From a virus (lineage: Duplodnaviria > Heunggongvirae > Uroviricota > Caudoviricetes): a stretch of 36,611 nt of DNA. Below are positions 2,027-31,116 of this stretch, piece after piece (position 1 is the stretch's first letter; every line of letters begins with the position of its first letter). Below the pieces are notes generated by a model, which saw nothing but the letters and a program-made list of their open reading frames with translations, did not search any database and had not been told where the DNA came from. The position numbers were made by a program, and so were the translations under genes. The stretch lies in the IMG/VR virus record IMGVR_UViG_2537561930_000005, one strand, 5' to 3'.

Positions 2027-2155
2027 GACCTACCTCGCCTGCCCCCTGCAAAGGGCAGAAGTAACGGAGGAAACGCGGATGCAACCACAGACATCACCGC
2101 CCCGACTGCGAGGCTTCCCTTCTCTAAGAAGGGCATAAATTCGGGCTGGTCAACC

Positions 2156-3398: not shown

Positions 3399-3425
3399 TT
3401 TATCTCCTGTAACAGTTATCACAAC

Positions 3426-3821: not shown

Positions 3822-3918
3822 TTTTAACCCCACTCACCATCAGCAAACAAAGCGTTATACTCTGACATTGACATCCTCCCCCACCTTCGCACTTCGTGAC
3901 TCAGGAGGGGGATTCCCA

Positions 3919-5151: not shown

Positions 5152-5203
5152 TCAGTGTGTAGTAGATTTTCTTGCAATATTACTGTTTTTACGGCCAACC
5201 TCA

Positions 5204-5608
5204 ATGCAAAAATACAAAATCAATCGTTCAAGACATGCTGCCTTCCTTTTGCATGTTCATCTTGTCTTTGTAACAAAATACCGTCGAAAGATACTGGGAG
5301 AGTTACACTGTGCAGCATTCCATCAGTATGCAGCAGAAGTCTGCCGTGATTTTGGGGCAGAACTTAAAGAAAGTAACGGAGACGTCGATCATGTCCACAT
5401 GCTGATCGAATACCCACCAACAGTGCAGCTTTCGGTACTGGTTAACTCACTGAAAGCAGTGACATCCCGCCGTCTGCGAAACGAATTTCTTGATTTGCGG
5501 GGGGCATACGGAAAAGCCGTGCTCTGGTCGAGGTCATACTTTGCTGGCTCCTGCGGAGGTGCGCCGCTGGAAGTTGTGAAGCAATATATTCAACATCAGC
5601 GAGGCTGA
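5204..5608 (+). CDS. tnpA: IS200-type Y1 (HUH) transposase TnpA, 134 aa
   Basis: HUH motif (HVHMLIEYPP) and conserved IS200 TnpA length and architecture. Confidence 0.85.
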   Translation: MQKYKINRSRHAAFLLHVHLVFVTKYRRKILGELHCAAFHQYAAEVCRDFGAELKESNGDVDHVHMLIEYPPTVQLSVLVNSLKAVTSRRLRNEFLDLRGAYGKAVLWSRSYFAGSCGGAPLEVVKQYIQHQRG

Positions 5609-5680
5609 GCACCCTTCGGGCTTTTCAAGCCCGTCCAAATTCCCCTCCCGCCTTATGTCGGCGGGAGTACCCTTTGGAAG

Positions 5681-5968
5681 TTAAGATGGTAGACGGTTGC
5701 CCTCGATGTAGAGATTCAGTTCATACTTCGTCTCCGGGTTTTCCTTGTCGGCTCGTTCCCAACGCTCAGCAGCCTCACGCGCCAATAATTCCACTGCTTT
5801 CAGATAATCCTCCGTACGGAACCAGCCAAAGATAAGGCCACGATCTGTTACAGCCCAGGCAACCTTTTTTTCTTCCTCCTGGATAGCCTTAATGCGTCGA
5901 TCGCATTCATCCCGGCAAAACTGCAGCTGACGGTAATCAAGTTTGTCCAAAAATGCAGTAGTAGACAT
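5681..5968 (-). CDS. Hypothetical protein (95 aa) downstream of repA
   Basis: ORF on the repA strand; no recognised domain. Confidence 0.35.
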   Translation of the reverse strand: MSTTAFLDKLDYRQLQFCRDECDRRIKAIQEEEKKVAWAVTDRGLIFGWFRTEDYLKAVELLAREAAERWERADKENPETKYELNLYIEGNRLPS

Positions 5969-5972
5969 ATTT

Positions 5973-6164
5973 TTACTCCCCGTTCACCGAAAAATCACGA
6001 TAGAAACGTTTCCACATACGATAAGTCTGCGCGAGTTGTTCACCACGAAACATCGCCTTCCTGGCCTTCATGTTTTCCTTGTGAGACTTTCGATCTATGA
6101 ACCAAAACCATTGCTGGAACACACAAAGCAAGAGACACAAAGATAATATCCACTGATTACCCAT
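5973..6164 (-). CDS. Small membrane protein (63 aa, MGNQWILSLCLLLCVFQQWFWFI...)
   Basis: ATG at 6164 lies 2 nt upstream of the repA TAA stop (ATGGGTAA), suggesting translational coupling. One clear hydrophobic helix. Confidence 0.3.
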   Translation of the reverse strand: MGNQWILSLCLLLCVFQQWFWFIDRKSHKENMKARKAMFRGEQLAQTYRMWKRFYRDFSVNGE

Positions 6165-9100: not shown

Positions 9101-10152
9101 AAGATTTCATAGCCAGTCCGCAGGCCGGTATTCCCTTTTCCTTCTGTGGCAGATTTCCGGTCATTATCCAGTGCGCAGGTGATTTTTGCCGCCGGGTACA
9201 TGTTTACCAGTTGTTCCACAACATGAACCATGTTGTTAGCGGATACAGCGACAACCACAGCGTCAAAGCGTTTATCTTTTTTCGTGGCAAGCCAGATGGA
9301 TGCACCAGTAGCAAAACCTTCTGTAACAGCGATGTTTTGCGCCCCTTTCAGCTCACCGATAACAAAGCAGGCACCGACGAAATCGCCGCTGGTTACTGCG
9401 CTGGTCTGGTATTTTCCACCTTGTTTGTCGATTCGCTGCCAACCCACAATACGACCATCGTAACGACCGTCCAGGTGAGCCAGAGGGATAGCCATATACG
9501 TGGTTGGCCCCCTGCTCCATTTTGCGCTGTCGTGACTGGTCACGCGACGCACATCACACGAATTAAAAACGTCACGAATACCTTTTTTAATCGCATATGG
9601 CCATGAGCCGTCTTCTGCAGGAGCATGTTCCCACGCGCTGTGAAATGCCAGCCATCCCAGCAAACGTTCATGGTCAATTTGGTTGTTTTTCAGGTCATTA
9701 ATTCGTTTTTGTTCTTCACGGCGACGACGTGCTTCGGCCTGACGTTCTATTCTTGCCCGTTCTTCTTCCGGTTGTGCGACCACGGTCGCATTATTCCGTT
9801 GTTGCTCACGGCGATATTCAGAAAACAGGAAGGAGAAACCGCTCCATGAGCCAGCATCGCTGCCTTTATGGACGAAGTTAATGAACGGGTAATCAATCCC
9901 TTTGCTGTGTTCCAGCCGGGAGTAAATTTCTACGCGTCCTTTGAGGCTCTTCTCGAGAGCTTCTGGAGATGTTTTATTGTATGAAGAGTAACGCTCAACA
10001 CCCCCGCGAGGGTTGAGTTGGATGTTGTCGGAACAGGCAGGCCAGTTGATACCAGCCATCTGTGCCAGCTCGGTTAGTTCATCCCGTGCTGCTTCAATTA
10101 GCGAGAACGGATCGCTGCCAAAGCGATCCGCATAGAAATCGTTTAATGTCAT
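6157..10152 (-). CDS. repA: Replication protein RepA, primase-helicase fusion, 1331 aa
   Basis: Giant ORF with Walker A (GMGSGKST) helicase region and N-terminal primase-like region. Size and position (divergent from telN, adjacent to cB) match N15 repA, which I recall is ~1324 aa. Confidence 0.8.
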   Translation of the reverse strand: MTLNDFYADRFGSDPFSLIEAARDELTELAQMAGINWPACSDNIQLNPRGGVERYSSYNKTSPEALEKSLKGRVEIYSRLEHSKGIDYPFINFVHKGSDAGSWSGFSFLFSEYRREQQRNNATVVAQPEEERARIERQAEARRRREEQKRINDLKNNQIDHERLLGWLAFHSAWEHAPAEDGSWPYAIKKGIRDVFNSCDVRRVTSHDSAKWSRGPTTYMAIPLAHLDGRYDGRIVGWQRIDKQGGKYQTSAVTSGDFVGACFVIGELKGAQNIAVTEGFATGASIWLATKKDKRFDAVVVAVSANNMVHVVEQLVNMYPAAKITCALDNDRKSATEGKGNTGLRTGYEILSKFNDVRCVYPTFEDDPQMECSDFNDLHKLRGLRETARQLFATANRLKTGTDLLSLTLNRLKTIKRDNRRTFAKELLRAVDIGMLTCPVPNSPSDLFNMFCIVLREMGLENIYRATVKDHIARRLNKKCRIAQAPRSFSERITDPNKRPQHITYKRFETSVMTDDVLKYVQSLQGIVIVRAGMGSGKSTGLLRPLMHSSERGISVAHRVSLIGGLWEMMTEGKGVKADILHYQDPGYQEMAPYASKLTICINSIVKNCWQPLMRQHDYFGFDEATQGLRAVLSGRAMENPVAVFNTLIDALARTEQHPIMVDADANDLLVDLAELAMKRREELGLPAWLQIHVIELPVDVRNRETGEPIRVFYTEKDRIMTEVVKAVSDGEKIMLATDSSTFAEDVTATLRMHFPGKKFLCVNQKNKPEPEVEAFTNQPKKMVKKYDGLIYSPSISSGVSIEQKHFDRHFGMFCGEVVPSDAVQMLRRDRTAKEFIIGFDKARAKRETDPQKIERAFAQALLATAGMNGELTDVVFDGDRISMGVANTDFTRMKIKAAAIEATARNDYASNMICIMHSDGYKVSPLATDYAANDIGKELRKEARDIVWEQTLDLHLNTETPQESEREELLKKRALTLEEQAKLVRWDIENELKLPVEEGTLKFYFDGARDKVRRYETMLLDEVTARRYDREEAAINFTYAYRQAGQWQYFVVTAMTREQADDVFKTKFPGIIDHKVKATPTVEVGARGFYALKSATLRQYFIDCGINPETMTGEATQERLKFARDNLMTAERRDLLNNVLHIGGFMTPKGKPKVPEALFKNICDSLGLKTGKRRGRDGDKRPTLRFVEPESAAFMLDILAQRQKDGLTLKTRKAEKTAIEMDRDLDLNIYMDDKTRSTNEQVQNAPHSVISEALAVLPVVVPESWAMSALSGEELATMSSWSSASIAMTFASLYLTEFMDHLSSNELRRLREYITGNSPCSYEEQGAFYG
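6436..6490. other. Candidate internal replication origin element within the 3' part of repA
   Basis: Inverted repeat GGATCGCG (6439-6446) / CGCGATCC (6480-6487) flanking an AT-rich spacer containing TATATATAT; three GATC sites within ~50 bp. Confidence 0.3.
9775..9790. other. sopC-like partition (centromere) site copy 1, TGCGACCACGGTCGCA, inside repA
   Basis: 16-bp element with 7-bp inverted arms around AC. Exact 16-mer is repeated at 12218 and 16512. Differs at 2 positions from the F SopB-binding core TGGGACCACGGTCCCA as I recall it. Confidence 0.6.
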
Positions 10153-10273
10153 TTTTTAGCCATTCCATGCGAATTATGTTTTTTCGGGTTGAAAAAATCC
10201 GCAGGAGCAGCCACAATAAACGCATCTTGAATTGACGGAATCCGTCGCTTTGTTGTGGCTGCTTCCTGAAAAG

Positions 10274-10303
10274 GACCCGAGTTTGCCGACTCGGGTTTTT
10301 TTT
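10274..10303 (+). terminator. Rho-independent terminator (stem CCCGAGT/ACTCGGG, loop TTGCCG, T8)
   Basis: Direct read: perfect 7-bp GC-rich stem followed by 8 T on the plus strand, between repA start and cB end. May also act on the minus strand. Confidence 0.6.
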
Positions 10304-10397
10304 CGTCTTTTTTCTGCTGCTGTAACCTGAGTCAACCCACAGAACATATGCCCTGCATTAAACCAGATTTACAGCAAACAATAAACCCCGTATTAAG

Positions 10398-10994
10398 TCA
10401 TCTACCCTCAACCATGAATGATTTGATCGTTCCGACTATTTGGTGAACAAATTCAAGATCGCTTTTCCTGAAGATAGCGCGTTGTGAGTTTGTTCCATCC
10501 AGATAGTAATTTTCATCATCAAAACGGGCTAGGCGCTGGATAGTGATATTTCCTGCAGTATCACGAACCAGAACATCCTCGCCGGGGACCAGTTCCAGCG
10601 CAGAATCGACCAGGAGAAAATCGCCTGGCTGATAGTTTCCCTGCGTAAGATTGCTGATAGTTAACGCATACACAGTATTGCGCTGGCTGATGAATGGCAG
10701 GAATCGCTCAGTATTTGGAACCTGTCCCGGCTTCCACTCTTCATCAGGCCCACTTTCAGTTGTGCCAATAACAGGAATGCGATCAGGGTCATATTCTGTC
10801 CCATATAGCACCCAATGTACTGGCTTGCGTAAGCACTTAGCCAGGGCAATACCTATCTCCAGTGACGGCATTACGTCGCCACGTTCTAAGTTTTGGACGC
10901 CTGCTATAGAGATATCGACAGCCTCAGCAACTTCTCGCAACGTCAGCTTCATCTCTAAACGGCGTGCTTTCAGTCGTTCGCCTCGTGTTTTCAT
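10398..10994 (-). CDS. cB: Prophage repressor CB (CI-like, N-terminal HTH), 198 aa
   Basis: HTH_XRE segment LTLREVAEAVDISIAGVQNLERG, CI/LexA-like C-terminal fold, divergent from a cro-like gene with palindromic operators between them. Confidence 0.8.
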   Translation of the reverse strand: MKTRGERLKARRLEMKLTLREVAEAVDISIAGVQNLERGDVMPSLEIGIALAKCLRKPVHWVLYGTEYDPDRIPVIGTTESGPDEEWKPGQVPNTERFLPFISQRNTVYALTISNLTQGNYQPGDFLLVDSALELVPGEDVLVRDTAGNITIQRLARFDDENYYLDGTNSQRAIFRKSDLEFVHQIVGTIKSFMVEGR

Positions 10995-11016
10995 ACTGTA
11001 ATCATAAATGATCTTC

Positions 11017-11032
11017 TTATAGCTGGCTATAA
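11017..11032. promoter_or_regulatory. Operator OR copy A, TTATAGCTGGCTATAA
   Basis: Near-perfect 16-bp palindrome in the cB-cro divergent intergenic region. Confidence 0.65.
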
Positions 11033-11042
11033 AATTTATTTA

Positions 11043-11058
11043 TTATAGCTGGCTTTAA
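11043..11058. promoter_or_regulatory. Operator OR copy B, TTATAGCTGGCTTTAA
   Basis: Second copy 26 bp centre-to-centre from copy A; TATAAT-like -10 at 11074-11079 just before the cro ATG. Confidence 0.6.
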
Positions 11059-11085
11059 TTATTGTTTATTGTTTATAATAACAAC

Positions 11086-11307
11086 ATGAAACCAGAAGAA
11101 CTTATTCGCCACTTTGGCAGTGTTGAAAAAGCAGCGGCAGGGGTAGGTGTAACACCCGGAGCTGTTTACCAATGGTTAACCGCTGGAGAGATTCCTTCAT
11201 TGCGGCAAAGCGATATTGAAGTTCGTACTGCTTACAAGCTGAAGAGTGACTTTACAACTCGGCGGGTAAAGCAGTCGATTAAGGAGAGTCGTAAGCGTGG
11301 AGCTTGA
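11086..11307 (+). CDS. cro: Cro-like repressor (HTH), 73 aa
   Basis: HTH FGSVEKAAAGVGVTPGAVYQWL; divergent from cB. Possibly leaderless, as the -10 lies immediately upstream. Start codon uncertain. Confidence 0.6.
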   Translation: MKPEELIRHFGSVEKAAAGVGVTPGAVYQWLTAGEIPSLRQSDIEVRTAYKLKSDFTTRRVKQSIKESRKRGA

Positions 11308-12007
11308 GTATATACGCAGCTGCGTCTCTACGGCATTGGCTGATGTTCATTATCGCCAGCGTGGCATTCTGGAGGTCCAGCTTGAGCAGATGCGTCTCGG
11401 TAGATCAGGACGGTTTAACAATAAACCAGTCCGGTCAATCAGTGTGGGGGATGATAACTCATACGAAGTGTCCGTTCCCGCTGAGCCGGTTAGATTCCAC
11501 CAGGGGAAAACATTTAAACAATCATCAATGTTGCTCACTGATATTGATTTTCAGAGCGCCAGCTGGCGCAGGGCTATTTGTCAGTTGAATAACGAGGAAT
11601 CAGCCTGGCTTTATTATTGCTACGGATGCAAGCCTGACTACAACAATGATGTGATTGTTTGTCAGTGGTTATGGCTTGATTTTCTGGTTGCTCATTCGGG
11701 GGGCGGCTTTAAAAAAATGAAGGCCTCCACGAAAAAAGCCATGCGGAAATTGATTTATTACGCGGCACAGCAGGTTAAATCAGAACTTACGTGTGCTGAG
11801 GCAGTTGATGAGAGAGAACAGGACAGGCATCTGAGTTTTCTACTGAATATATCTATTGATAGCTGGAGACAAGATTATAAAGAACGCTGGCTTTTAATTA
11901 AGTCGCGATGTCTGAGCTTAAATCGAACCGCATTATTAAATGCGGCGGAGAAGCGCAGTGAAATCATCAAACGCCATCGGGCAGGAAGTGCCATTCTGCC
12001 TTTGTAA
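11297..12007 (+). CDS. Putative late-gene regulator (Q-like antiterminator?), 236 aa
   Basis: GTG start with RBS AAGGAGAG, overlapping the cro stop. Position matches N15 Q by recollection only; no diagnostic motif verified. Confidence 0.35.
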   Translation: MELEYIRSCVSTALADVHYRQRGILEVQLEQMRLGRSGRFNNKPVRSISVGDDNSYEVSVPAEPVRFHQGKTFKQSSMLLTDIDFQSASWRRAICQLNNEESAWLYYCYGCKPDYNNDVIVCQWLWLDFLVAHSGGGFKKMKASTKKAMRKLIYYAAQQVKSELTCAEAVDEREQDRHLSFLLNISIDSWRQDYKERWLLIKSRCLSLNRTALLNAAEKRSEIIKRHRAGSAILPL

Positions 12008-12260
12008 ACAAGTTATGTTCAGGAAACCGTCGAAGCCAGAATTAAGGTATTCGGGGGTAAGAAATGAATATGTCATCTGGTGTCCAACTTGCGGTTACAG
12101 GACACGACCCGATAGTAATAAGCAGTCTGTAATTGCCGATTGGTATTTATCAAATCAGCCAGGTAATAAGCATATAGAAAATCTTTGGATTAAGCGTTAT
12201 CTGGAAATTAGAGAGGGTGCGACCACGGTCGCACAAGAAAATGAAAATAACGCCATTTAA
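11940..12260 (+). CDS. Small zinc-ribbon protein (CxC...CPTCG), possibly Lar-like
   Basis: Cys pairs CLC and CPTCGY. The ATG at 11940 overlaps the Q-like gene; alternative start at 12015. Confidence 0.3.
   Translation: MRRRSAVKSSNAIGQEVPFCLCKQVMFRKPSKPELRYSGVRNEYVIWCPTCGYRTRPDSNKQSVIADWYLSNQPGNKHIENLWIKRYLEIREGATTVAQENENNAI
12218..12233. other. sopC-like partition site copy 2 (TGCGACCACGGTCGCA)
   Basis: Exact repeat of the 16-mer at 9775; lies within the 3' end of the zinc-ribbon ORF. Confidence 0.6.
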
Positions 12261-12444
12261 ACAGGGGCCGATGACGCATGATGAGGCAGAGCGTCTTTCA
12301 GATACTTATCGGCGGCGTGGTAAGAAAGTTCTGGTTGTTCGTTCTGATTTTTTAGGTGATGGATATTGCGTTTATGTTCATTTACCTGAATCAGAAAGAG
12401 CACCAAAACCATCCAGAACATATCAACAGAAGTTTTGGGCATAG
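12241..12444 (+). CDS. Hypothetical small protein (start uncertain: 12241 or 12271)
   Basis: ORF only; no recognised domain. Confidence 0.3.
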   Translation: MKITPFKQGPMTHDEAERLSDTYRRRGKKVLVVRSDFLGDGYCVYVHLPESERAPKPSRTYQQKFWA

Positions 12445-12467
12445 ATAAACATTGAGGAGAATTATTC

Positions 12468-13067
12468 GTGACTAATCAGATAATTTACGACAGGAAACGG
12501 TCTGATGTAATGATTGACCTTGAAACAATGGGTACTAATACATGTGCTCCAATTGTTTCTATCGGGGCAGTGTTTTTTTCTCCTGAAAGTGAGGAATTAG
12601 GTGCCACTTTTTATGTACCAGTGAATCTCAGAAGCTCGATGTTAAATGGTGGTGTTGCCGATGGTGATACCATTTTATGGTGGTTGCGGCAGAGCAAGGA
12701 AGCCAGAGCCGCAATTTGTACTAATGATGCCCTTGATATTAATGATGCACTTTTTGAATTATCACACTTTATTACTTGCCATGCTTGTAATTTAAAAACA
12801 TTGAAAGTATGGGGAAATGGAGCAACGTTCGATAATGTAATTTTACGCGGCGCTTATGAGCGCGTTGGCTTATCCTGTCCGTGGGAATATTTTAATGATC
12901 AGGATGTTCGAACAATCGTTAATCTTGGTCAGTTTATTGGTTTTAATCCTAAAAAAGATATGCCATTTGATGGCGAACGACACAATGCCCTGGCTGATGC
13001 TATTCATCAGGCTAAATATGTATCTGCAATTTTCTCCCGTCTTGTAAAAGGGCAAGGAGAATCGTAA
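12468..13067 (+). CDS. DnaQ-like 3'-5' exonuclease (DEDDh), 199 aa
   Basis: GTG start with RBS GAGGAG. Motifs MIDLETMG (Exo I D-x-E) and HNALADA (Exo III H-x4-D). Confidence 0.65.
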   Translation: MTNQIIYDRKRSDVMIDLETMGTNTCAPIVSIGAVFFSPESEELGATFYVPVNLRSSMLNGGVADGDTILWWLRQSKEARAAICTNDALDINDALFELSHFITCHACNLKTLKVWGNGATFDNVILRGAYERVGLSCPWEYFNDQDVRTIVNLGQFIGFNPKKDMPFDGERHNALADAIHQAKYVSAIFSRLVKGQGES

Positions 13068-13486
13068 TGGCAAAGGCTTTTACACCAGAACAGAGGGAAG
13101 AACTGAATAAACAAATTGTGGAACTCGTGCGCCTGAATGGACGAGGAACGGTTAGGCAACTTGCGGATGAAACTGGTATTAGCCGGTGTGCTGTTAGTCG
13201 TTTATCAAGAGAGCTTGCTGCCAGTGGTGATTTGTATATCTCTGGCTCCGGGATATTTCTGTCTGCACAAGCACGCAAGGACTGGCAAAACGCCCGTAAA
13301 AAACTATCAAGAGTAAAGCCGAAGAAATCGGTAGTGGTTGATCCAGACCTTATCTGGTCATTACCTGACGGAGAAATACGTCGCTACGACAGGCGCCTGA
13401 ACATGATTTGTCACGATTGTCGGAAGAGCGAAGTTATGCAGCGTGTGTTGGCGTTTTATCAGGGAAATTTTCAGGAGGTGGCGTAG
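13067..13486 (+). CDS. Winged-HTH DNA-binding protein, 139 aa
   Basis: Segment TVRQLADETGISRCAVSRLSREL resembles an HTH. ATG overlaps the upstream stop (TAATG). Confidence 0.45.
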   Translation: MAKAFTPEQREELNKQIVELVRLNGRGTVRQLADETGISRCAVSRLSRELAASGDLYISGSGIFLSAQARKDWQNARKKLSRVKPKKSVVVDPDLIWSLPDGEIRRYDRRLNMICHDCRKSEVMQRVLAFYQGNFQEVA

Positions 13487-13776
13487 TGAATATCGACACC
13501 ACGATAACGATCGATATGGCCCTAAATACCGGTCTGGCACTTCTCGGTTGGTTTTACATCATGTTCAGTGCGGGGAAGTGGGCGGCCTCTGTTTTTCTAA
13601 AGCAGTGGGGAAAGCGCCGCAAACAGGAAAAACGCCAGAAAGCGTTGGAGGCGTTCTATGACGCATTTGAACTTGGCCGCATTGAACCAGGTACAACAGC
13701 CAGGATAGCGACAAAAGGCGACCTGATGATAGTGATGTTCCGACAGGAGAGAGCAGAGAAAGGGGGATCAGCATGA
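13486..13776 (+). CDS. Small membrane protein (~96 aa)
   Basis: GTG at 13486 with RBS AGGAGG 7 nt upstream. Hydrophobic helix LALLGWFYIMF followed by a basic tail. Confidence 0.4.
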   Translation: MNIDTTITIDMALNTGLALLGWFYIMFSAGKWAASVFLKQWGKRRKQEKRQKALEAFYDAFELGRIEPGTTARIATKGDLMIVMFRQERAEKGGSA

Positions 13777-14432
13777 AATTTTCCAAATTTTCTGAGTTGG
13801 TGAATCGTATTTTGTCCAACAACCACAGCCATCGTCGCGATATGGATGTAACAATCGTTGTTCATTCGCCTGGCAGCATTGGTTCAACACCTTCAGTTGA
13901 GGTTCAGTCAATTCACGCTGGTTTTGATTGGGATTCCGGGAAAGTGCTTATTTTCCCAACACAGCCACTGACCACGCTAACACCAGAACAGATTACTGAT
14001 ATTACTGATAGTGTGCGCAAAGGTCAGTCTTGGCACGCATATCAGGAATATAAAAAGCATAAAGAGCAGTTGGAAAAATTGTCGATTGAGTTGGAATCAG
14101 CCAAAAATCACATAGCAGAACTGGAAGCCAAACCTGTAAGCCAAACTTACAAGTTAACTTTTGAGCAATGGCTGGAACAGCAGCATGACAAAATTGATGT
14201 TGATTGTGGATGTGTAAGTACAGAAATGCTTATGCACTGGATAAGGGTCGCGTATGAGGCTGGCAACTCTCCGGTAACTCCGGATGGTCATATTCAGTTT
14301 TCTGTTTCACTTCCTGCAGCATGTGGTGGAGATAAATATTTTATTGATGGTGTATTTCAACCTTTGAGATATGAGCGTGACTGTGAAAAAGCGGTTGTGG
14401 CCGCTGGCGGTGTAGTTAATTGGGTTAAGTAA
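13773..14432 (+). CDS. Hypothetical protein with central coiled coil, 219 aa
   Basis: ATG overlaps the upstream stop (ATGA) with RBS AGGGGGA. No recognised domain. Confidence 0.5.
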   Translation: MKFSKFSELVNRILSNNHSHRRDMDVTIVVHSPGSIGSTPSVEVQSIHAGFDWDSGKVLIFPTQPLTTLTPEQITDITDSVRKGQSWHAYQEYKKHKEQLEKLSIELESAKNHIAELEAKPVSQTYKLTFEQWLEQQHDKIDVDCGCVSTEMLMHWIRVAYEAGNSPVTPDGHIQFSVSLPAACGGDKYFIDGVFQPLRYERDCEKAVVAAGGVVNWVK

Positions 14433-14447
14433 TTTTCAGGAGGATTT

Positions 14448-14774
14448 ATGGCGCTGACAGCTGCAGAACGGCAAAGGAGACGCAGGGAACGGTTGAAGAA
14501 GGAAGGCACATCAAGACGGGACTGGATTCTGGAACCTGACGAGTTACGTATGTTGGGGGAAATTTGTGTATTGCGTAGACCAGGGCGAGTTCCATATTCA
14601 GAGAACGAAGTCATCGGACTGCTGATCAGGAAAAACTATAAGGAGTTGCAGAAACAGCTATCTACTACTTGTCCGCGATGTGGTCAAAGAATGCCTGTTT
14701 CAGAATGCATTTTTGATGGTGAAGGCTCATGCCACCTTACAACCACGAGGCTGAAACTTGCGCTCAAAGTGTGA
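14448..14774 (+). CDS. Hypothetical basic protein with C-terminal zinc ribbon (CPRCG...C..C), 108 aa
   Basis: RBS AGGAGG; Arg-rich N-terminus; Cys cluster. Confidence 0.45.
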   Translation: MALTAAERQRRRRERLKKEGTSRRDWILEPDELRMLGEICVLRRPGRVPYSENEVIGLLIRKNYKELQKQLSTTCPRCGQRMPVSECIFDGEGSCHLTTTRLKLALKV

Positions 14775-14792
14775 CTGGTCACGGAGGGGTAA

Positions 14793-14948
14793 ATGGACAA
14801 AAAGGCATTGCTTTTTGAAATGATACGAAAACGGAGCGAAAAGAGCTTTTCTGATGGTGGTGATGGGCTTTTGGAAGTGGTTGGGCGAGGCGCAGGAAGG
14901 GAACATAAGTATCGGACTACAAAGATATTTAACCAGTTAATCCATTGA
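14793..14948 (+). CDS. Hypothetical small protein (51 aa)
   Basis: Hand-translated ORF not in the supplied track. Strong RBS GGAGGGG 5 nt upstream of the ATG. Confidence 0.3.
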   Translation: MDKKALLFEMIRKRSEKSFSDGGDGLLEVVGRGAGREHKYRTTKIFNQLIH

Positions 14949-14965
14949 AAGCTGGCTATAAAATT
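14945..14965. promoter_or_regulatory. Third copy of the cB operator motif (AGCTGGCTATAAAATTT shared with OR copy A)
   Basis: 17-nt exact match to 11021-11037, in an AT-rich region upstream of the gene at 15017. Confidence 0.5.
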
Positions 14966-15016
14966 TGAGTTTTACCCTGTAATTTTATACAGTATCAAAT
15001 AACCTTTTTTAATTAA

Positions 15017-15235
15017 ATGGTATTAGATTCAATGACTGAAGCACCTGTATCAACTCTTGAAGAACTCGGATCAAACCTAAAAGACATCGACGCCGTTTTG
15101 GATCTGGTTAGCGTTGCTCTGGCTTCTCCAGAAGCCAGCTTGCATCTTGGCGAGATTTCACGACTTGTTAGTATGTCGCGGGAGATAGCTCAGAATTGCC
15201 AACAAGTTATTGCTGTTGAGAGTTTACATCATTGA
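15017..15235 (+). CDS. Hypothetical small acidic protein (72 aa)
   Basis: ORF downstream of the operator-like site; start uncertain. Confidence 0.35.
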   Translation: MVLDSMTEAPVSTLEELGSNLKDIDAVLDLVSVALASPEASLHLGEISRLVSMSREIAQNCQQVIAVESLHH

Positions 15236-15278
15236 TACACACCCCGCCCTTCCGGACGGGGTAGCGAAAAGGGTCTAA

Positions 15279-15566
15279 TCAATAGACGGCATTAATATTA
15301 ATCGTTGCACCGCATGCTTGGGCATATTTTGATAAAGTTTTCATGCTTGCCCCTAAAGGATTGCTTTCCAGGCGGCTGATAGCTGACGGGCGCAATCCCA
15401 TTCGTTCAGCCAGAGCTGACTTCGTTAAACCTGCTCTTTCCCTCATTTCGTATAACATTTCGACCATCTCCAGCTCTTTATCGGCCTCTTCATATCCTTT
15501 GATGGCTTCTGGAGTGTTGAGAAGTTTTTCTTTTACTTCGTTAAACGGGATGCCTTTCGCTTTCAT
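15279..15566 (-). CDS. HTH_XRE antitoxin (HigA-like), 95 aa
   Basis: HTH LTKSALAERMGLRPSAISRLE. ATG overlaps the toxin stop (TGATG); RBS AAGGAG lies within the toxin 3' end. Confidence 0.7.
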   Translation of the reverse strand: MKAKGIPFNEVKEKLLNTPEAIKGYEEADKELEMVEMLYEMRERAGLTKSALAERMGLRPSAISRLESNPLGASMKTLSKYAQACGATININAVY

Positions 15567-15877
15567 CAGTTCATCTCCTTCAGGCGAGTTCTGGCGATTT
15601 CGATAGCCTTCACCGGTGTTTTCTGTGTCTTTTTTACAAATGCATGCAATAGATAAATTTCGTTACCAGTCGCGTAGGCGTACAGCGTTCTTGCGATGTT
15701 TTTATCCCCTACTCGTAGTTCAAAAAGCCCTCCACCTATTACACGGCTATGGGGCATCTTCAGTTTGTTGCCTTCTTTCTCCAGTCGCTCAATTAATCTG
15801 GTCATGCGACCTCGCAAATCATCTGGTAGTTCAAGCAGTTCATCCAGTGCTGCAGGGTGGGTTATCACGTTAAACAT
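15566..15877 (-). CDS. RelE/ParE-superfamily toxin, HigB / Gp49-like, 103 aa
   Basis: Size, toxin-first order and sequence character match the phage Gp49-like (HigB-type) killer family, which was named after N15 gp49. Confidence 0.65.
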   Translation of the reverse strand: MFNVITHPAALDELLELPDDLRGRMTRLIERLEKEGNKLKMPHSRVIGGGLFELRVGDKNIARTLYAYATGNEIYLLHAFVKKTQKTPVKAIEIARTRLKEMN

Positions 15878-15935
15878 ATTATAGCCTCCATATCCATAAA
15901 ATACACCAAAACAAGAAAACAGCGCAAATTAAAAA

Positions 15936-15953
15936 TTTCACTAAAAAGTGAAA
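15936..15953. promoter_or_regulatory. Palindrome TTTCACT-AAAA-AGTGAAA, putative toxin-antitoxin operator
   Basis: Perfect 7-bp inverted arms ~60-80 bp upstream of the toxin start, in the divergent intergenic region. Confidence 0.45.
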
Positions 15954-16042
15954 AATAACACTGGATGTGTTCGTTTGGCAGAGTTACAGTTCGTGTCATT
16001 GAGGGGCAATAACCCACTAACTATATGAATTTGGAGGATATT

Positions 16043-16264
16043 ATGAATTATCAAGGTAACGAAAAAATGCGCGACGACGTTGCGGAGATAGCTAACGAAC
16101 TGTATGAGTTGTGGCAGAAGGTTGAACGTTTCGAAAAGGAATATGGTTTCAACAGTACCAACCTAGCAGACCGACTGGCTGGTCGCTTAGTTGGGACTAT
16201 GGGGCCAAAACTGGCTGAGTTGAACCGCTTTATGGCTGATGTTGATTTCCAGTTTCAAGATTGA
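16043..16264 (+). CDS. Hypothetical small protein (~73 aa)
   Basis: ATG at 16043 with RBS GGAGGA; an upstream in-frame ATG at 16025 is also possible. Confidence 0.4.
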   Translation: MNYQGNEKMRDDVAEIANELYELWQKVERFEKEYGFNSTNLADRLAGRLVGTMGPKLAELNRFMADVDFQFQD

Positions 16265-16277
16265 TTAGAGAGGCGTT

Positions 16278-16505
16278 ATGAATATTAATGAAATTCGTGG
16301 AAATATGACTGAAGCGGCCCTGAGTGTGGAATGTGTTATGCGTGGATACCCACGCATTTCCCTGAAAGAGTTAAGCGAAGCCTGTTTTTTGAGTCAGGCT
16401 GCCGTTGAATTTATCATCGAACAGATGATCTGTTTTGGGATTGCAAAGCGTAGCGGGTCTGGTCGATATTCTTTGACCGATGAATATAAGCAGGCAACTT
16501 TCTAA
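16278..16505 (+). CDS. Hypothetical small protein (75 aa)
   Basis: RBS GAGAGG; ORF only. Confidence 0.4.
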   Translation: MNINEIRGNMTEAALSVECVMRGYPRISLKELSEACFLSQAAVEFIIEQMICFGIAKRSGSGRYSLTDEYKQATF

Positions 16506-16511
16506 AAACTG

Positions 16512-16527
16512 TGCGACCACGGTCGCA
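16512..16527. other. sopC-like partition site copy 3 (TGCGACCACGGTCGCA)
   Basis: Exact 16-mer, intergenic, 7 nt after the stop of the upstream gene. Confidence 0.6.
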
Positions 16528-16614
16528 CAGCACAAAAACGAAAAAGCTTGGCAAAATGACGGTTTTTAGTTATTGTTTTGTTAAGTTGGGTTTTTTGTAC
16601 CCAACAGCTAACAA

Positions 16615-16637
16615 GCCGCCTTTATGGCGGTTTTTTT
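16615..16637 (+). terminator. Small rho-independent terminator (GCCGCC-TTTAT-GGCGG + T7)
   Basis: Direct read; position upstream of the late genes suggests a tR'-type terminator read through by antitermination. Confidence 0.45.
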
Positions 16638-16654
16638 GTGCCTGAAAAGTGGGC

Positions 16655-16680
16655 GCAGGACAAGTTGCAGCTTGTCCTGC
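16655..16680 (+). promoter_or_regulatory. Perfect 10-bp stem-loop GCAGGACAAG-TTGCAG-CTTGTCCTGC
   Basis: Direct read; no T-run follows, so not a classic terminator. Confidence 0.4.
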
Positions 16681-16772
16681 GGTCAACCCATGCCAGAGCT
16701 ATAGGCTGAACCTAAAGCCCACCCGCGATGCGCATCGCCGGGTTAGCTTACCCAGGCAAAAAAATAATAGCT

Positions 16773-17849
16773 ATGTTCAAAACCACTAATATTCATGGCG
16801 CGCAACTCGTTTGCGCAGATTCTCTGCAATTTATCAAAACCATCCCTGATAACTCGGTCAATTTGATTGCAACAGACCCACCATACTTCGGCGTAAAGGC
16901 TAACGCATGGGATAACCAGTGGGATAGCGATGCTGACTTTTTGGGGTGGATTGACGAATTTTTGGCAGAATTTTGGCGGATATTGGCCCCTAATGGCAGC
17001 CTGTATATGTTTACCGGCTCTCGCCTTGCGTCAAAAATTGAATTATTAACTCGCGACCGTTTCAATGTTCTGAACCATATCATTTGGGCTAAACCCAGTG
17101 GTATGTGGCGCGGTTGTCATAAAGAAAGTTTAAGGGCTTATTTTCCTGCTACTGAAAGAATATTATTTGCAGAGCATTACGGCGCGTCAGGTTATGCGAA
17201 AGGTCAGTCAGGTTATGCTTCAAAATGTGCAGATTTAAGAAAAAATATTTTTTCTCCACTAATTGATGCTTTTTCGCTGGCTCGCCGTCAGTTAGATATA
17301 TCAGCCGCAGACATTAATTCAGCGACAGGAAAGCAGATGTGTTCACACTGGTTTTCTTATTCGCAGTGGCGGCTTCCATCATTAATTGATTTTAATAAAC
17401 TATGCGAATTATTTCGCAGGAAGGCAGATTCACTCGGTGTCCAGTGTCCATATCCTTTTAATGTTGATTATTCAGAACATGAAAAGCGTTATAGCGATCT
17501 GAAATTACATTATGAGGAAGTAAAGAAGCAGTATGATGATTTGAAGGTGCAGTATGAAAATTTACGCCGTCCATTTCATGTTACTGCTGATGTACCTTAT
17601 ACCGATGTATGGGAGTTTCCTCCTGTGCAATATTATCCTGGCAAGCACCCATGTGAAAAACCTGCAGCGATGATGGAACATATTATAAAGAGTAGTTCAC
17701 GCCCCGGAGATATCGTTGCCGATTTCTTTATGGGATCAGGCTCAACTATTAAAGCTGCGCTGAAGTTAGGACGTCAGGCAATAGGTATTGAGATTGAGAG
17801 CGAACGTTATCTTCAGACAGTTGATGAAGTGAAAAAGTTATTTGAGTAA
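16773..17849 (+). CDS. Orphan DNA methyltransferase (N6-adenine/N4-cytosine class, DPPY motif), ~358 aa
   Basis: Motif IV DPPY followed later by motif I FFMGSGST. No adjacent restriction endonuclease gene. Start uncertain (16728 or 16773). Confidence 0.75.
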   Translation: MFKTTNIHGAQLVCADSLQFIKTIPDNSVNLIATDPPYFGVKANAWDNQWDSDADFLGWIDEFLAEFWRILAPNGSLYMFTGSRLASKIELLTRDRFNVLNHIIWAKPSGMWRGCHKESLRAYFPATERILFAEHYGASGYAKGQSGYASKCADLRKNIFSPLIDAFSLARRQLDISAADINSATGKQMCSHWFSYSQWRLPSLIDFNKLCELFRRKADSLGVQCPYPFNVDYSEHEKRYSDLKLHYEEVKKQYDDLKVQYENLRRPFHVTADVPYTDVWEFPPVQYYPGKHPCEKPAAMMEHIIKSSSRPGDIVADFFMGSGSTIKAALKLGRQAIGIEIESERYLQTVDEVKKLFE

Positions 17850-17944
17850 CTGGAGAATATATTCCCCTGCCGTTTTTGGTAGGGGTTATTTTTGCCATAT
17901 AGTTTCCAAGCCGAAACCTCAGCAACTATTGCGAGGTAAGAGAT

Positions 17945-18217
17945 ATGAAGATGGATGAACGATACAGCAGTGCATCTTATGGTAGCGCTGGTCTTGCTGC
18001 GTTCTTTGCCAGCCTGTCATTGCAGGATTGGGGCTTCATTATCGGTGTCGCGTTCAGCATTATCCTCGGTGTGCTTACATACCGGCTCAATAAACGCGAG
18101 CAGATGAAGCGCACGAAGATATTGCAGGACATATTGGATAAAACTGATGCCAATAATATTTCTGCCACGGCGATGGTTATTGGTGAATTGGGAAAGAGAG
18201 CACCGAAGGAAATATGA
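17945..18217 (+). CDS. Holin with dual-start motif (MKM...), 90 aa
   Basis: RBS GAGGTAA; Met-Lys-Met start; hydrophobic helix [18 protein letters not shown]; immediately upstream of the endolysin. Confidence 0.7.
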
Positions 18218-18714
18218 TGCAGTCATCATTACGCAAAGCTGTCGCAACTGCTATTGGTGGCGGGGCTATTGCCATAGCATCTGTGCTCATCTCTGGTCCG
18301 AGCGGCAACGATGGTCTGGAAGGTGTGAAATATAACCCCTACAAAGACATCGTTGGTGTATGGACTGTATGTTACGGGCATACAGGAAAAGACATTATGC
18401 TCGGTAAAACGTATACCGAAGCAGAATGCAAAGCTCTCCTGAATAAAGACCTTGCTACTGTCGCCATACAAATTAACCCGTACATCAAAGTCGATATACC
18501 GGAAACAACGCGCGGTGCTCTTTACTCGTTCGTTTACAACGTGGGTGCAGGCAATTTCAGAACATCGACACTTCTTCGCAAAATCAACCAGGGCGATATC
18601 AAAGGTGCATGTGATCAACTACGTCGCTGGACATATGCTGGCGGTAAGCAATGGAAAGGCCTGATGACTCGTCGTGAGATTGAGCGTGAAGTCTGTTTGT
18701 GGGGGCAACAATGA
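18214..18714 (+). CDS. SAR endolysin (T4-lysozyme-like, GH24), 166 aa
   Basis: N-terminal Gly/Ala-rich signal-anchor-release segment ([20 protein letters not shown]) and catalytic E-x8-D-x5-T triad ([17 protein letters not shown]). Confidence 0.8.
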
Positions 18715-19178
18715 GCAGAGTAACCGCAATTATCTCCGCTCTGGTTATCTGCATCATCGTCTGCCTGTCGTGGGCGGTCAATCATTACCGTGATAACGCC
18801 ATCGTCTACAAAGAACAGCGAGATAAAAAAGTCAGTGAGCTGAAGCAGGCGACCGCCACCATTACTGACATGCAGCAGCGCCAGCGTTCTGCTGATGCAC
18901 TCGATGCTAAATACACGAAGGAGTTAGCTTATGCGAAAGCTGAAAATGATGCTCTTCGGCGCAAGCTTGATAATGGTGGTCGGGTGTTCGTCAAAGGAAA
19001 ATGCCCTGTGCCATCCTCAGCCGAAACCTCCAGCGCCTCCGGCATGGGCAATGATGCCACCGTCGAACTCTCTCCAGTTGCTGGACGAAACGTTCTCGGT
19101 ATCCGGGACGGAATTATCCGCGACCAAACAGCACTGAGAACGCTTCAGGAATACATCAGGACGCAATGCCTTCGATGA
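18711..19178 (+). CDS. Rz: Rz i-spanin, ~155 aa
   Basis: ATG overlaps the endolysin stop (ATGA); N-terminal TM helix and coiled coil; contains an embedded Rz1. Confidence 0.75.
18931..19137 (+). CDS. Rz1: Rz1 o-spanin lipoprotein embedded in Rz (+1 frame)
   Basis: Lipobox IMVVGC followed by a Pro-rich mature region ([16 protein letters not shown]), wholly within Rz. Confidence 0.7.
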
Positions 19179-19351
19179 TAGCGATAATTTTACTCATCAT
19201 CCTTCACATCTGGCTCTGTAGACAGGGTGGTGCTCACTTCTGGAGTGAATCCAGATTAAACATCTCATTGCTGATGCTTGATATTGAGCATTTTGCGCGC
19301 GGTAAGGGGCTGCGTTGAGATAAGAGCCAGTCATTACAAATACCAGGATTT

Positions 19352-19376
19352 AGCCTCGCATTCGCGGGGCTTTTTA
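19352..19376 (+). terminator. Rho-independent terminator after the lysis cassette
   Basis: Stem AGCCTCGC / GCGGGGCT (one G-U pair), loop ATTC, then T5. A second hairpin follows at 19388-19413. Confidence 0.5.
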
Positions 19377-19669
19377 TTGCCATTACAAAAGCCACTTCCT
19401 ACAGAGTGGCTTTGATAATGGCTTATACCCTACACGGGATAACTTAACTGATATCCCTTTTAAAGGATAAAGGTATTCAAGCCTGACACATCATGCGCTG
19501 TATCGTCGCCGTATTCCCGTATTAACAGAGACCGTAGCCCGACGGGGAACTCCTTCTGCGCGAGTGTGCGGGAATAATCAAAAACGATGCACACCGGGGT
19601 TACCGGGTACACATATTTCATCATGCCAGCGAGTCCGGTTCTGGCACGGAAAAAACCGGACGTTATGAT

Positions 19670-26703: not shown

Positions 26704-27729
26704 ATGTCGATGTACACAACCGCCCAACTGCTGGCGGCAAATGAGCAGAAATTTAAGTTTGATCCGCTGTTTCTGCGTCTCTTTTTCCGTGAGAGCTATC
26801 CCTTCACTACGGAGAAAGTCTATCTCTCACAAATTCCGGGACTGGTAAACATGGCGCTGTACGTTTCGCCGATTGTTTCCGGTGAGGTTATCCGCTCCCG
26901 TGGCGGCTCCACCTCTGAATTTACACCGGGATATGTCAAGCCGAAGCATGAGGTGAATCCGCAGATGACCCTGCGTCGCCTGCCGGATGAAGATCCGCAG
27001 AATCTGGCGGACCCGGCTTACCGCCGCCGTCGCATCATCATGCAGAACATGCGTGACGAAGAGCTGGCCATTGCTCAGGTCGAAGAGATGCAGGCAGTTT
27101 CTGCCGTGCTCAAGGGCAAATACACCATGACCGGTGAAGCCTTCGATCCGGTTGAGGTGGATATGGGCCGCAGTGCGGCGAACAACATCACGCAGTCCGG
27201 CGTCACGGAGTGGAGCAAGCGTGACAAGTCCACGTATGACCCGACCGACGATATCGAAGCCTACGCGCTGAACGCCAGCGGTGTGGTGAATATCATCGTG
27301 TTTGACCCGAAAGGCTGGGCGCTGTTCCGTTCCTTCAAAGCCGTCAGGGAGAAGCTGGATACCCGTCGCGGCTCTCATTCCGAGCTGGAGACAGCGGTGA
27401 AAGACCTGGGCAAAGCGGTGTCCTATAAGGGAATGTATGGCGATGTGGCCATCGTCGTGTATTCCGGACAGTACGTGGAAAACGGCGTCAAAAAGAACTT
27501 CCTGCCGGACAACACGATGGTGCTGGGGAACACTCAGGCTCGCGGTCTGCGCACCTATGGCTGCATTCAGGATGCGGACGCACAGCGCGAAGGCATTAAC
27601 GCCTCTGCCCGTTACCCGAAAAACTGGGTGACCACCGGCGATCCGGCGCGTGAGTTCACCATGATTCAGTCAGCACCGCTGATGCTGCTGGCTGACCCTG
27701 ATGAGTTCGTGTCCGTTCAACTGGCGTAA
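26704..27729 (+). CDS. E: Major capsid protein E (341 aa)
   Basis: MSMYTTAQLLAANEQKF...; 341 aa as in lambda gpE. Confidence 0.95.
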   Translation: MSMYTTAQLLAANEQKFKFDPLFLRLFFRESYPFTTEKVYLSQIPGLVNMALYVSPIVSGEVIRSRGGSTSEFTPGYVKPKHEVNPQMTLRRLPDEDPQNLADPAYRRRRIIMQNMRDEELAIAQVEEMQAVSAVLKGKYTMTGEAFDPVEVDMGRSAANNITQSGVTEWSKRDKSTYDPTDDIEAYALNASGVVNIIVFDPKGWALFRSFKAVREKLDTRRGSHSELETAVKDLGKAVSYKGMYGDVAIVVYSGQYVENGVKKNFLPDNTMVLGNTQARGLRTYGCIQDADAQREGINASARYPKNWVTTGDPAREFTMIQSAPLMLLADPDEFVSVQLA

Positions 27730-27731
27730 TC

Positions 27732-27749
27732 ATGGCCCTTCGGGGCCAT
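27732..27749 (+). promoter_or_regulatory. Intercistronic hairpin with UUCG tetraloop (ATGGCCC-TTCG-GGGCCAT)
   Basis: Direct read, between the E stop and the FI RBS, followed by a T-rich run. Confidence 0.5.
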
Positions 27750-27770
27750 TTTCTCTCTGTGGAGGAGTTC

Positions 27771-28167
27771 ATGACGAAAGATGAACTGATTGCCCGTCTT
27801 CAGGAGCTGGGTGAGCAACTGAACCGCGATGTCAGCCTGACGGGAACGAAAGAAGAACTGGCGCTTCGTGTGGCAGAGCTGGAAGAAGAGCTTGATGACA
27901 CGGATGAAACTGCCGGTCAGGACACCCCTCTCAGCCGGGAAAATGTGCTGACCGGGCATGAAAATGAGGTGGTATCAGCGCAGCCGGATACCGTGACAGG
28001 ATACGGCTGAACTAGTCACGGTTGTGGCACTGGTGACGCTGCATACTGATGCACTTCACGCCACGCGGGATGAGGCTGTGGCATTTGTGCTGCCGGGAAC
28101 GGCGTTTCGTGTCTCTGCCGGTGTGGCAGCTGAAATGACAGAGCGCGGCCTGGCCAGAATGCAATAA
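27771..28167 (+). pseudogene. FI: FI (DNA-packaging/head assembly) disrupted by an apparent frameshift
   Basis: FI frame from ATG 27771 stops at TGA 28008-28010 after 79 codons. A different frame (open from 27997, stop at 28165) encodes ...DTAELVTVVALVTLHTDALHATRDEAVAFVLPGTAFRVSAGVAAEMTERGLARMQ, the expected FI C-terminus, with no start of its own. Confidence 0.6.
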
Positions 28168-28178
28168 CGGGAGGCGCT

Positions 28179-28532
28179 GTGGCTGATTTCGATAACCTGT
28201 TCGATGCTGCCATTGCCTGCGCCGATGAAACGATACGCGGGTACATGGGAACGTCAGCCACCATGACATCCGGTGAGCAGTCCGGTGCTGTGATACGTGG
28301 TGTTTTTGATGACCCTGAAAATATCAGCTATGCCGGACAGGGCGTGCGCGTTGAAGGCTCCAGCCCGTCCCTGTTTGTCCGGACTGATGATGTGCGGCAG
28401 CTGCGGCGTGGAGACACGCTGACCATCGGTGAGGAAAATTTCTGGGTAGATCGGGTTTCGCCGGATGATGGCGGAAGCTGTCATCTCTGGCTTGGACGGG
28501 GCGTACCGCCTGCCGTTAACCGTCGCCGCTGA
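28179..28532 (+). CDS. FII: Head-tail connector FII (117 aa)
   Basis: MADFDNLFDAAIA...; RBS GGGAGG; length as in lambda FII. Confidence 0.95.
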   Translation: MADFDNLFDAAIACADETIRGYMGTSATMTSGEQSGAVIRGVFDDPENISYAGQGVRVEGSSPSLFVRTDDVRQLRRGDTLTIGEENFWVDRVSPDDGGSCHLWLGRGVPPAVNRRR

Positions 28533-28543
28533 AAGGGGGATGT

Positions 28544-29122
28544 ATGGCCATAAAAGGTCTTGAGCAGGCCGTTGAAAACCTCAGCCGTATCAGCAGAACG
28601 GCGGTGCCCGGTGCCGCCGCAATGGCCATTAACCGCGTTGCGTCATCCGCGATATCGCAGTCGGTGGCACAGGTTGCCCGTGAGACAAAGGTACGCCGGA
28701 AACTGGTAAAGGAAAGGGCCAGGCTGAAAAGGGCCACGGTCAAAAATCCGCAGGCCAGAATCAAGGTTAACCGGGGGGATTTGCCCGTAATCAGGCTGGG
28801 TAACGCGCGGGTTGTCCTGTCCCGACGCAGGCGTCGTAAAAAGGGGCAGCGTTCAGCCCTGAAAGGTGGCGGCAGTGTGCTTGTGGTGGGAAACCGTCGT
28901 ATTCCCGGCGCGTTTATTCAGCAACTGAAAAATGGCCGGTGGCATGTCATGCAGCGTGTGGCCGGGAAAAACCGTTACCCCATTGATGTGGTGAAAATCC
29001 CGATGGCGGTGCCGCTGACCACGGCGTTTAAACAGAATATTGAACGGATACGGCGTGAACGTCTTCCGAAAGAGCTGGGCTATGCGCTGCAGCATCAACT
29101 GAGAATGGTAATAAAGCGATGA
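28544..29122 (+). CDS. Z: Tail completion protein Z (192 aa)
   Basis: Length and order as in lambda. Confidence 0.9.
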   Translation: MAIKGLEQAVENLSRISRTAVPGAAAMAINRVASSAISQSVAQVARETKVRRKLVKERARLKRATVKNPQARIKVNRGDLPVIRLGNARVVLSRRRRRKKGQRSALKGGGSVLVVGNRRIPGAFIQQLKNGRWHVMQRVAGKNRYPIDVVKIPMAVPLTTAFKQNIERIRRERLPKELGYALQHQLRMVIKR

Positions 29123-30277: not shown

Positions 30278-30700
30278 ATGTTCCTGAAAACCGAATCATT
30301 TGAACATAACGGTGTGACCGTCACGCTTTCTGAACTGTCAGCCCTGCAGCGTATTGAGCATCTCGCCCTGATGAAACGGCAGGCAGAACAGGCGGAGTCA
30401 GACAGCAACCGGAAGTTTACTGTGGAAGACGCCATCAGAACCGGCGCGTTTCTGGTGGCGATGTCCCTGTGGCATAACCATCCGCAGAAGACGCAGATGC
30501 CTTCCATGAATGAAGCCGTTAAACAGATTGAGCAGGAAGTGCTTACCACCTGGCCCACGGAGGCAATTTCTCATGCTGAAAACGTGGTGTACCGGCTGTC
30601 CGGTATGTATGAGTTTGTGGTGAATGATGCTCCTGAACAGACAGAGGACGCCGGGCCTGCAGAGCCTGTTTCTGCGGGAAAGTGTTCGACGGTGAGCTGA
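30278..30700 (+). CDS. G: Tail assembly chaperone G (140 aa)
   Basis: MFLKTESFEHNGVTVTLSEL...; 140 aa as in lambda gpG. Confidence 0.95.
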   Translation: MFLKTESFEHNGVTVTLSELSALQRIEHLALMKRQAEQAESDSNRKFTVEDAIRTGAFLVAMSLWHNHPQKTQMPSMNEAVKQIEQEVLTTWPTEAISHAENVVYRLSGMYEFVVNDAPEQTEDAGPAEPVSAGKCSTVS

Positions 30701-31116
30701 GTTTTGCCCTGAAACTGGCGCGCGAGATGGGGCGACCCGACTGGCGTGCCATGCTTGCCGGGATGTCATCCACGGAGTATGCCGACTGGCACCGCTTTTA
30801 CAGTACCCATTATTTTCATGATGTTCTGCTGGATATGCACTTTTCCGGGCTGACGTACACCGTGCTCAGCCTGTTTTTCAGCGATCCGGATATGCATCCG
30901 CTGGATTTCAGTCTGCTGAACCGGCGTGAGGCTGACGAAGAGCCTGAAGATGATGTGCTGATGCAGAAAGCGGCAGGGCTTGCCGGAGGTGTCCGCTTTG
31001 GCCCGGACGGGAATGAAGTTATCCCTACTTCCCCGGATGTGGCGGACATGACGGAGGATGACGTAATGCTGATGACAGTATCAGAAGGGATCGCAGGAGG
31101 AGTCCGGTATGGCTGA
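30278..31116 (+). CDS. T: G-T fusion tail assembly chaperone made by -1 programmed frameshift at GGGAAAG (30676-30682)
   Basis: Slippery heptamer G GGA AAG near the end of G; the -1 frame stays open to 31116. Known lambda G/GT mechanism. Confidence 0.85.

Follow-up and report, generated by a model that had tools for sequence, protein, structure and literature searches.

Gene FI of a lambda-type head operon is split by a two-base frameshift in a predicted N15-like plasmid prophage of Escherichia coli 201600.1: probable pseudogene or draft consensus error

The packaging gene FI is split by the absence of two bases in the DNA analysed here (the window, positions 1–36611, a stretch of 36,611 nucleotides that comprises the whole of contig AQFH01000007.1 from draft assembly GCA_000356745.2 of E. 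coli 201600.1). We think it probable that a real, recent, and non-programmed 2-bp deletion of TT has made FI a pseudogene in this strain. The split FI is either an ordinary frameshifted phage gene or a consensus error, and it bears no sign of a programmed mechanism.

Organisation of the FI locus

The head operon around FI is ordered D-E-FI-FII-Z-U-V, with FI flanked by the major capsid gene E on one side and by FII on the other. The 5′ part of FI (27771–28010, + strand, annotated as ENA24363.1) opens at ATG 27771 and reads MTKDEL...SAQPDTVTGYG to a TGA at 28008–28010, with the Shine-Dalgarno sequence GGAGGAG (27761–27767, + strand), read from the sequence and kept in the alignment described below, lying 3 nt before the ATG. 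A preliminary description of the window had given this ORF the same start, the same stop, and a length of 79 codons, and the sequence, the ORF list, and the translations, which are concordant on the split, bear this out. Residues 1–75 of the product are the authentic N-terminal domain and linker, and the last four (TGYG) are out of frame.

The 3′ part (27997–28167, + strand, 56 codons and TAA, annotated as ENA24325.1) lies in the +1 frame, where a TGA at 27994–27996 is followed by QDTAELVTVVALVTLHTDALHATRDEAVAFVLPGTAFRVSAGVAAEMTERGLARMQ as far as the TAA at 28165–28167. The C-terminal FI sequence therefore does continue in another frame up to 28165, as first described. No start codon or Shine-Dalgarno sequence of its own is present at the 5′ end of this part, and gene callers begin it at GTG 28024, which yields 47 aa. 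Between the FI TGA and FII, 168 nt (28011–28178) are untranslated in frame 0, in agreement with the ~170-nt gap originally reported. FII itself, encoding the head-tail joining protein (28179–28532, + strand, 117 aa), is intact, with a GTG start, its own GGGAGG upstream, and a full-length match at 97.4% identity.

Both parts of FI, each recognised by translation, profile, and tblastn, match Pfam family PF14000 (Packaging_FI) above its gathering score of 27 bits, the N-terminal part over profile positions 1–72 (E = 1.4e-31) and the C-terminal part over profile positions 81–131 (E = 5.5e-20). Using FI of Escherichia phage PhiR46_1 as a tblastn query, residues 1–75 align to 27771–27995 and residues 77–132 fall in the 3′ part. 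In place of the single continuous FI ORF of 131–132 aa, the window holds a 79-codon ORF and a +1-frame remainder, and the locus is a disrupted FI gene rather than an intact member of the PF14000 family.

Upstream of the FI ribosome-binding site, the E-FI intergenic region contains a GC-rich, terminator-like stem-loop, ATGGCCCTTCGGGGCCAT, with a T-rich tail (27732–27749, + strand). Its columns are identical in lambda and all aligned relatives, and it may modulate the expression of FI relative to that of the very abundant E protein.

The deletion and the neighbouring substitution

Window positions 27700–28250 were aligned at the DNA level with the closest E. coli prophages (those of UMNK88 and strain 2016C-3878), the phages mEp332 and PhiR49_1, and lambda. 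The UMNK88 prophage is 98.9% identical to the window over this interval, and the single length difference between the window and the 132-aa FI alleles is the loss of the TT of GTGATTCAGGAT between 27996 and 27997 (+ strand), the window reading GTGACAGGAT at 27993–28002. The preliminary description, which had placed about 2 nt missing near 27996, was thus exact in this six-sequence alignment. Its comparison with lambda was correct in the size and position of the lesion, however the parental allele is PDTVIQDTAELV and not the lambda sequence PDTVILDTSELV. As the lesion is a deterministic sequence feature, a chance test is not applicable to it.

All 49 same-flank alleles among the fetched loci (46 IMG/VR contigs and three reference loci) have TT at the junction, and all 49 relatives covering the deletion site carry two extra bases there. 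A second private change, a G to A substitution at 28014 (+ strand), lies 18 nt downstream of the deletion and is synonymous in the original FI frame (CTG to CTA, Leu); A is present at this position in 0 of 58 relatives. The junction between the FI linker and C-terminal domain is also a site of natural indel polymorphism, with 132-aa alleles reading GTGATTCAGGAT (V-I-Q-D) and 131-aa alleles reading GTGACT---GAT (V-T-D), the latter found as GTGACT---GATACG in many relatives. Alleles of 131 and 132 aa both occur among prophages with identical D protein, and the length variants are all in frame.

Lambda gpFI (NP_040588, the DNA packaging chaperone) occupies the same position between E and FII, with 94.9% DNA identity over 27700–28250. 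Whilst lambda gpFI is encoded by one ORF, the 2-bp deletion at codon 76 in the window puts the two domains in different frames.

Predicted consequence for the FI protein

The C-terminal 61 residues of an intact FI relative match PDB 2LSM, the C-terminal domain of lambda gpFI (E = 6e-29), and with this relative as the query 2LSM maps to FI residues 72–132. The break at residue 76 coincides with the N-terminal edge of this solved domain, so that the whole C-terminal domain is absent from the translated product. By its match to the family, the 3′ part is predicted to encode the C-terminal (head-binding) domain. When the 56-aa C-terminal piece was modelled with AlphaFold2 from its single sequence, only one of five models reached pLDDT 80, and these models were not used for placing domain boundaries. 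Popovic et al. are said to have located, in 2012, the head binding of gpFI in its C-terminal domain, and this domain is reportedly required for activity.

The preliminary description gave FI a role in head-tail joining in addition to packaging, and this is corrected here, as FI is a packaging chaperone and it is FII that joins head and tail. In the proposed mechanism, gpFI acts from its binding site on the prohead gpE lattice and aids formation of the prohead-terminase-DNA complex (PMC4856287). It is essential in vivo, dispensable in vitro, and can be bypassed by suppressors in the terminase and capsid genes (PMC13595911), with the proposed bridging mechanism requiring both domains in one chain (PMC13595911, PMC4856287).

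With a real deletion, ribosomes that initiate at ATG 27771 would translate 75 authentic and four out-of-frame codons before terminating at TGA 28008, and the remaining 56 FI codons would be left in the +1 frame without an initiation signal of their own. The product would keep the N-terminal helical domain and flexible linker but would not have the C-terminal domain that binds the gpE lattice. Such a fragment is expected to be unable to connect the prohead to the terminase-DNA complex, and packaging following induction would be strongly reduced. The truncated FI is, as judged from its sequence, an N-terminal fragment and probably inactive, and on the basis of the literature we infer that a phage with this split FI is FI-null or strongly hypomorphic.

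A laboratory parallel is provided by amber mutants in FI of lambda and the fin suppressors that bypass them (Murialdo et al. 1981, 1997, cited through PMC13595911). By analogy, the same phenotype would be expected, namely loss of the prohead/terminase-DNA chaperone that can be bypassed through changes in the terminase or capsid, however the lambda amber alleles are laboratory nonsense mutations and the window carries a natural frameshift in a plasmid prophage. Gene A of the window has two private nonsynonymous changes, I300M and T450I.

Real deletion or draft consensus error

No carrier of the FI deletion was found among 2,969 FI places in 5,426 complete E. coli genomes, where the best identity over 27950–28050 is 97.1%, corresponding to exactly two gap columns and one mismatch at the private substitution. 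The deletion junction has no match in 185,579 species genomes, IMG/VR, JGI metagenomes, PLSDB plasmids, or GenBank phages, and a look-up of the exact 79-aa FI product across 153 billion gene positions gave this single contig. Every FI homologue examined is one ORF of 131 or 132 aa, and all annotated neighbours are single-ORF. Searches with the 79-aa product, the 47-aa ORF, the D allele, and the 851-aa H allele found no second assembly or clonal relative of the contig, the closest contigs being only about 97.5–98% identical to the window. The derivation of the lesion from a single draft assembly of this kind counts against a real mutation.

The remainder of the contig favours a real mutation. 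In tblastn searches with the 54 proteins of PhiR46_1, 48 align full length and in one frame to the window, and across ~33 kb of coding sequence no gene besides FI contains a frameshift. The sole other gene disrupted relative to PhiR46_1 is a 108-aa hypothetical with an IS200/IS605 insertion. As FI is the only frameshifted gene, the assembly does not appear prone to indels, which counts for a real mutation. Furthermore, the deletion site is neither a homopolymer nor a simple repeat, where platform indel errors are concentrated, and this too counts for a real mutation.

It is possible, although we consider it somewhat unlikely, that the true FI is an intact 132-aa ORF from which the draft consensus lost two bases, with position 28014 perhaps miscalled as well. 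None of the collections searched has a second example of the lesion, as would be so for such an error. Additionally, the two private changes fall within 19 nt of one another, and with a private substitution density of ~1 per 777 nt the chance of a second change 18 nt from the deletion is about 0.05; local clusters of this kind are also found at misassembled spots. Both changes lie inside the imperfect palindrome ACCGTGA...TCACGGT. A source of mixed reads is conceivable, with several FI copies (as many as 5) often sharing one E. coli genome, the 131-aa allele GTGACT---GATACG having its indel at exactly the same site, and a column-wise consensus of mixed reads able to give GTGAC--AGGATACG. The contig also ends inside the repeated J gene, which indicates that repeats troubled this assembly.

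Against such an error, comparison of about 33 kb of coding sequence with that of a viable relative revealed no other frameshift, and the missing bases are not the usual homopolymer length error. Both flanks are of the 132-aa, UMNK88-like type, and 34 polymorphic columns upstream of the site contain no admixture of 131-aa sequence. A junction that no read contains cannot, moreover, be produced by a de Bruijn assembler. The reading of a real TT deletion is the one we follow below.

Two more elaborate origins of the junction were considered and rejected. A hybrid of the 132-aa and 131-aa alleles, arising by recombination or mixed-read consensus and reading GTGAC--AGGAT, is at odds with the 34 upstream columns and position 28011, all of which are of the 132-aa type. 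A plain TT deletion is more parsimonious than this hybrid, which survives only within the explanation by consensus error. Template switching at the quasi-palindrome predicts ACCGTGACCAG, whilst ACCGTGACAGG is observed; with the TT deletion the outer stem ACCGTGA/TCACGGT does gain a base pair (8 bp instead of 7), however the mismatch in the copied arm, together with the absence of any pairing gain from the G to A change at 28014, leads to its rejection.

Recoding and split-gene readings

Besides a tolerated defect and a sequencing error, which correspond to the two readings weighed above, the preliminary description suggested that the break could be a recoding site. Programmed recoding of FI is not supported and is very unlikely. 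In this reading a fraction of ribosomes would shift +1 between 27997 and 28007 to yield full-length FI, and we regard it as highly improbable. A shift of +1, not −1, is needed (28024 − 27771 = 253 = 3 × 84 + 1), and rescue by a frame change is possible only within 27997–28007. The candidate site is GGC UGA at 28005–28010, with an SD-like AGGA (27998–28001) three nt upstream in a prfB-like geometry, and the 0-frame stop is only 11 nt after the +1-frame stop (27994–27996). The programmed frameshift site of prfB is laid out as AGGGGG-UAU-CUU-UGA. This is resembled by the AGGA-UAC-GGC-UGA of the window, and a stable local RNA fold (z = −3.1) is also present.

Against recoding, the 0-frame codons ACA, GGA, UAC, and GGC cannot re-pair in +1 or −2, the +1 triplets of the permissive interval being CAG, GAU, ACG, and GCU, and the 11-nt interval offers no homopolymer on which transcription could slip. 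Every intact allele has the AGGA and the hairpin as ordinary coding sequence, and likewise the bases of UGA 28008, and the frameshift is unique to this contig, occurring in no FI homologue found. The likeness to prfB extends to the 0-frame UGA, the SD-like element three nt before the P-site codon, and the requirement for a +1 shift, however the P-site CUU U of prfB contrasts with a GGC that cannot re-pair in +1, the SD-like element is only AGGA, and the layout lacks conservation. The prfB-like layout in FI is an accidental product of the deletion. The lambda G-T frameshift in the same operon likewise differs in being a conserved −1 site built on an X XXY YYZ heptamer, whereas the FI break needs +1 and has no such heptamer, none being present in 27990–28010. 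The true lambda-type site of the window, GGGAAAG, looks quite different from the FI break.

That slippery heptamer lies at 30676–30682, in the overlap of G (30278–30700) and T (30682–31116), and the operon of FI itself thereby contains a programmed frameshift site that is intact and serves as a positive control.

Two further routes to frameshifting were rejected. RNA structure as a stimulator was set aside with the finding of the same fold in the intact UMNK88 allele (−39.1 vs −37.9 kcal/mol), and a translational hop from GGC 28005 to GGC 28026 would still land in frame 0, where it meets a TGA at 28047.

Equally improbable in our judgement is a split gene, in which the N-terminal fragment and a C-terminal domain reinitiated at GTG 28024 after TGA 28008 would jointly supply FI. 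The break coincides with the domain boundary, and the GTG, 14 nt past the stop, is where gene callers predict the 47-aa ORF. However, no SD precedes GTG 28024, and the ORF would begin at residue 86 and so leave out the first 14 residues of the 2LSM construct. Bridging moreover needs both domains in one chain (PMC13595911, PMC4856287), and the arrangement was seen in no other genome, the other contigs with the 47-aa ORF being remnants of a large deletion from A to FI. The chance that a low-level +1 shift at AGGA-UAC-GGC-UGA (27998–28010), or reinitiation at GTG 28024, leaves a little functional FI is accordingly rated as very slight. If such residual FI were made, the locus would be a natural example of a recoding or split-gene arrangement starting from a plain deletion.

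The N15-like plasmid prophage

The gene content of the window is that of an N15-like linear plasmid prophage whose head and tail module is of the lambda type, a module shared with PhiR46_1. Positions 1–19598, which take in the protelomerase, RepA/primase, cI, Q, and methylase genes, match PhiR46_1 (PV340565.1) at 97.2% identity over 87% of the query, and this left 19.6 kb is also ~97% identical to YDC107_1 and to many linear plasmid records with protelomerase and CyRepA1. N15 and phiKO2 are more distant N15-like telomere phage-plasmid relatives. The protelomerase ORF (83–1984, 633 aa) and the RepA/primase ORF (6157–10152, − strand, 1331 aa) share 99% protein identity with those of PhiR46_1, whose 633-aa ORF adjoins telL, and in plasmid records their homologues are annotated as protelomerase/telomere resolvase and CyRepA1. 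The window also encodes a DNA methylase (16728–17849), cI, Q, and a lysis cassette, followed by lambda-type genes from Nu1 into J, of which the 5′ end is present. Relative to the left end of PhiR46_1, the first base of the contig lies about 120 nt inwards, and the contig stops inside J. Compared with elements of the PhiR46_1 type, the window has a broken FI and an IS200/IS605 element in a small conserved gene, and the contig is without the right arm (the 3′ end of J, tail fibres, parAB, and telR).

Replication as a linear plasmid in the lysogen would make a defect in virion assembly free of cost there, and the TT deletion could persist. Private substitutions number 8 nonsynonymous and 10 synonymous in about 14 kb. 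Those in tail terminator U (L43P, position 29246, codon 43) and tail-tip L (D124Y, position 34359, codon 124) are seemingly non-conservative and possibly damaging. In gene H, encoding the tape measure, a private in-frame deletion of 6 nt, CAGTCC (Gln-Ser), at 32473/32474 gives 851 rather than 853 aa, and the exact 851-aa protein is found on the window contig only. The private changes in virion genes suggest relaxed selection, or some consensus noise; together with the deletion in H, they fit relaxed selection in an element with plasmid replication, and this counts for a real mutation in FI.

Provided that the deletion is real, this prophage of E. coli 201600.1 probably has a packaging defect, FI should be annotated as a pseudogene rather than as two FI proteins (ENA24363.1 and ENA24325.1), and the locus illustrates, on a small scale, how virion genes decay in an element able to persist as a plasmid. 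If the lesion is an artefact, it amounts to one consensus error in a draft genome. Either outcome is of little import beyond annotation, with no bearing on open questions of recoding or DNA packaging.

The IS200/IS605 element (~3870–5690) interrupts the conserved 108-aa hypothetical gene such that its residues 1–94 are encoded at 5968–5687 and residues 91–108 at 3880–3827. The element carries TnpA, a Y1 transposase (5204–5608, + strand), and TnpB, an RNA-guided nuclease of 410 aa (3919–5151, − strand), and a copy about 97.5% identical is present in the record of the filamentous phage If1.

The same 47-aa FI ORF is found elsewhere as the result of a different event, a large deletion joining gene A to FI. 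The Logan contigs SRR17798829_461, ERR12126897_601, and ERR12107321_1332 represent this recurrent prophage remnant, in which the first ~197 codons of the terminase gene A are fused to the C-terminal region of FI upstream of FII and Z, and one such contig is common to 15 samples. In PhiR49_1, the region matching 28525–28585 of the window contains a 43-nt tandem duplication over the FII stop, the Z ribosome-binding site, and the Z start, and it is owing to this duplication that Z of PhiR49_1 is annotated 54 nt further from FII.
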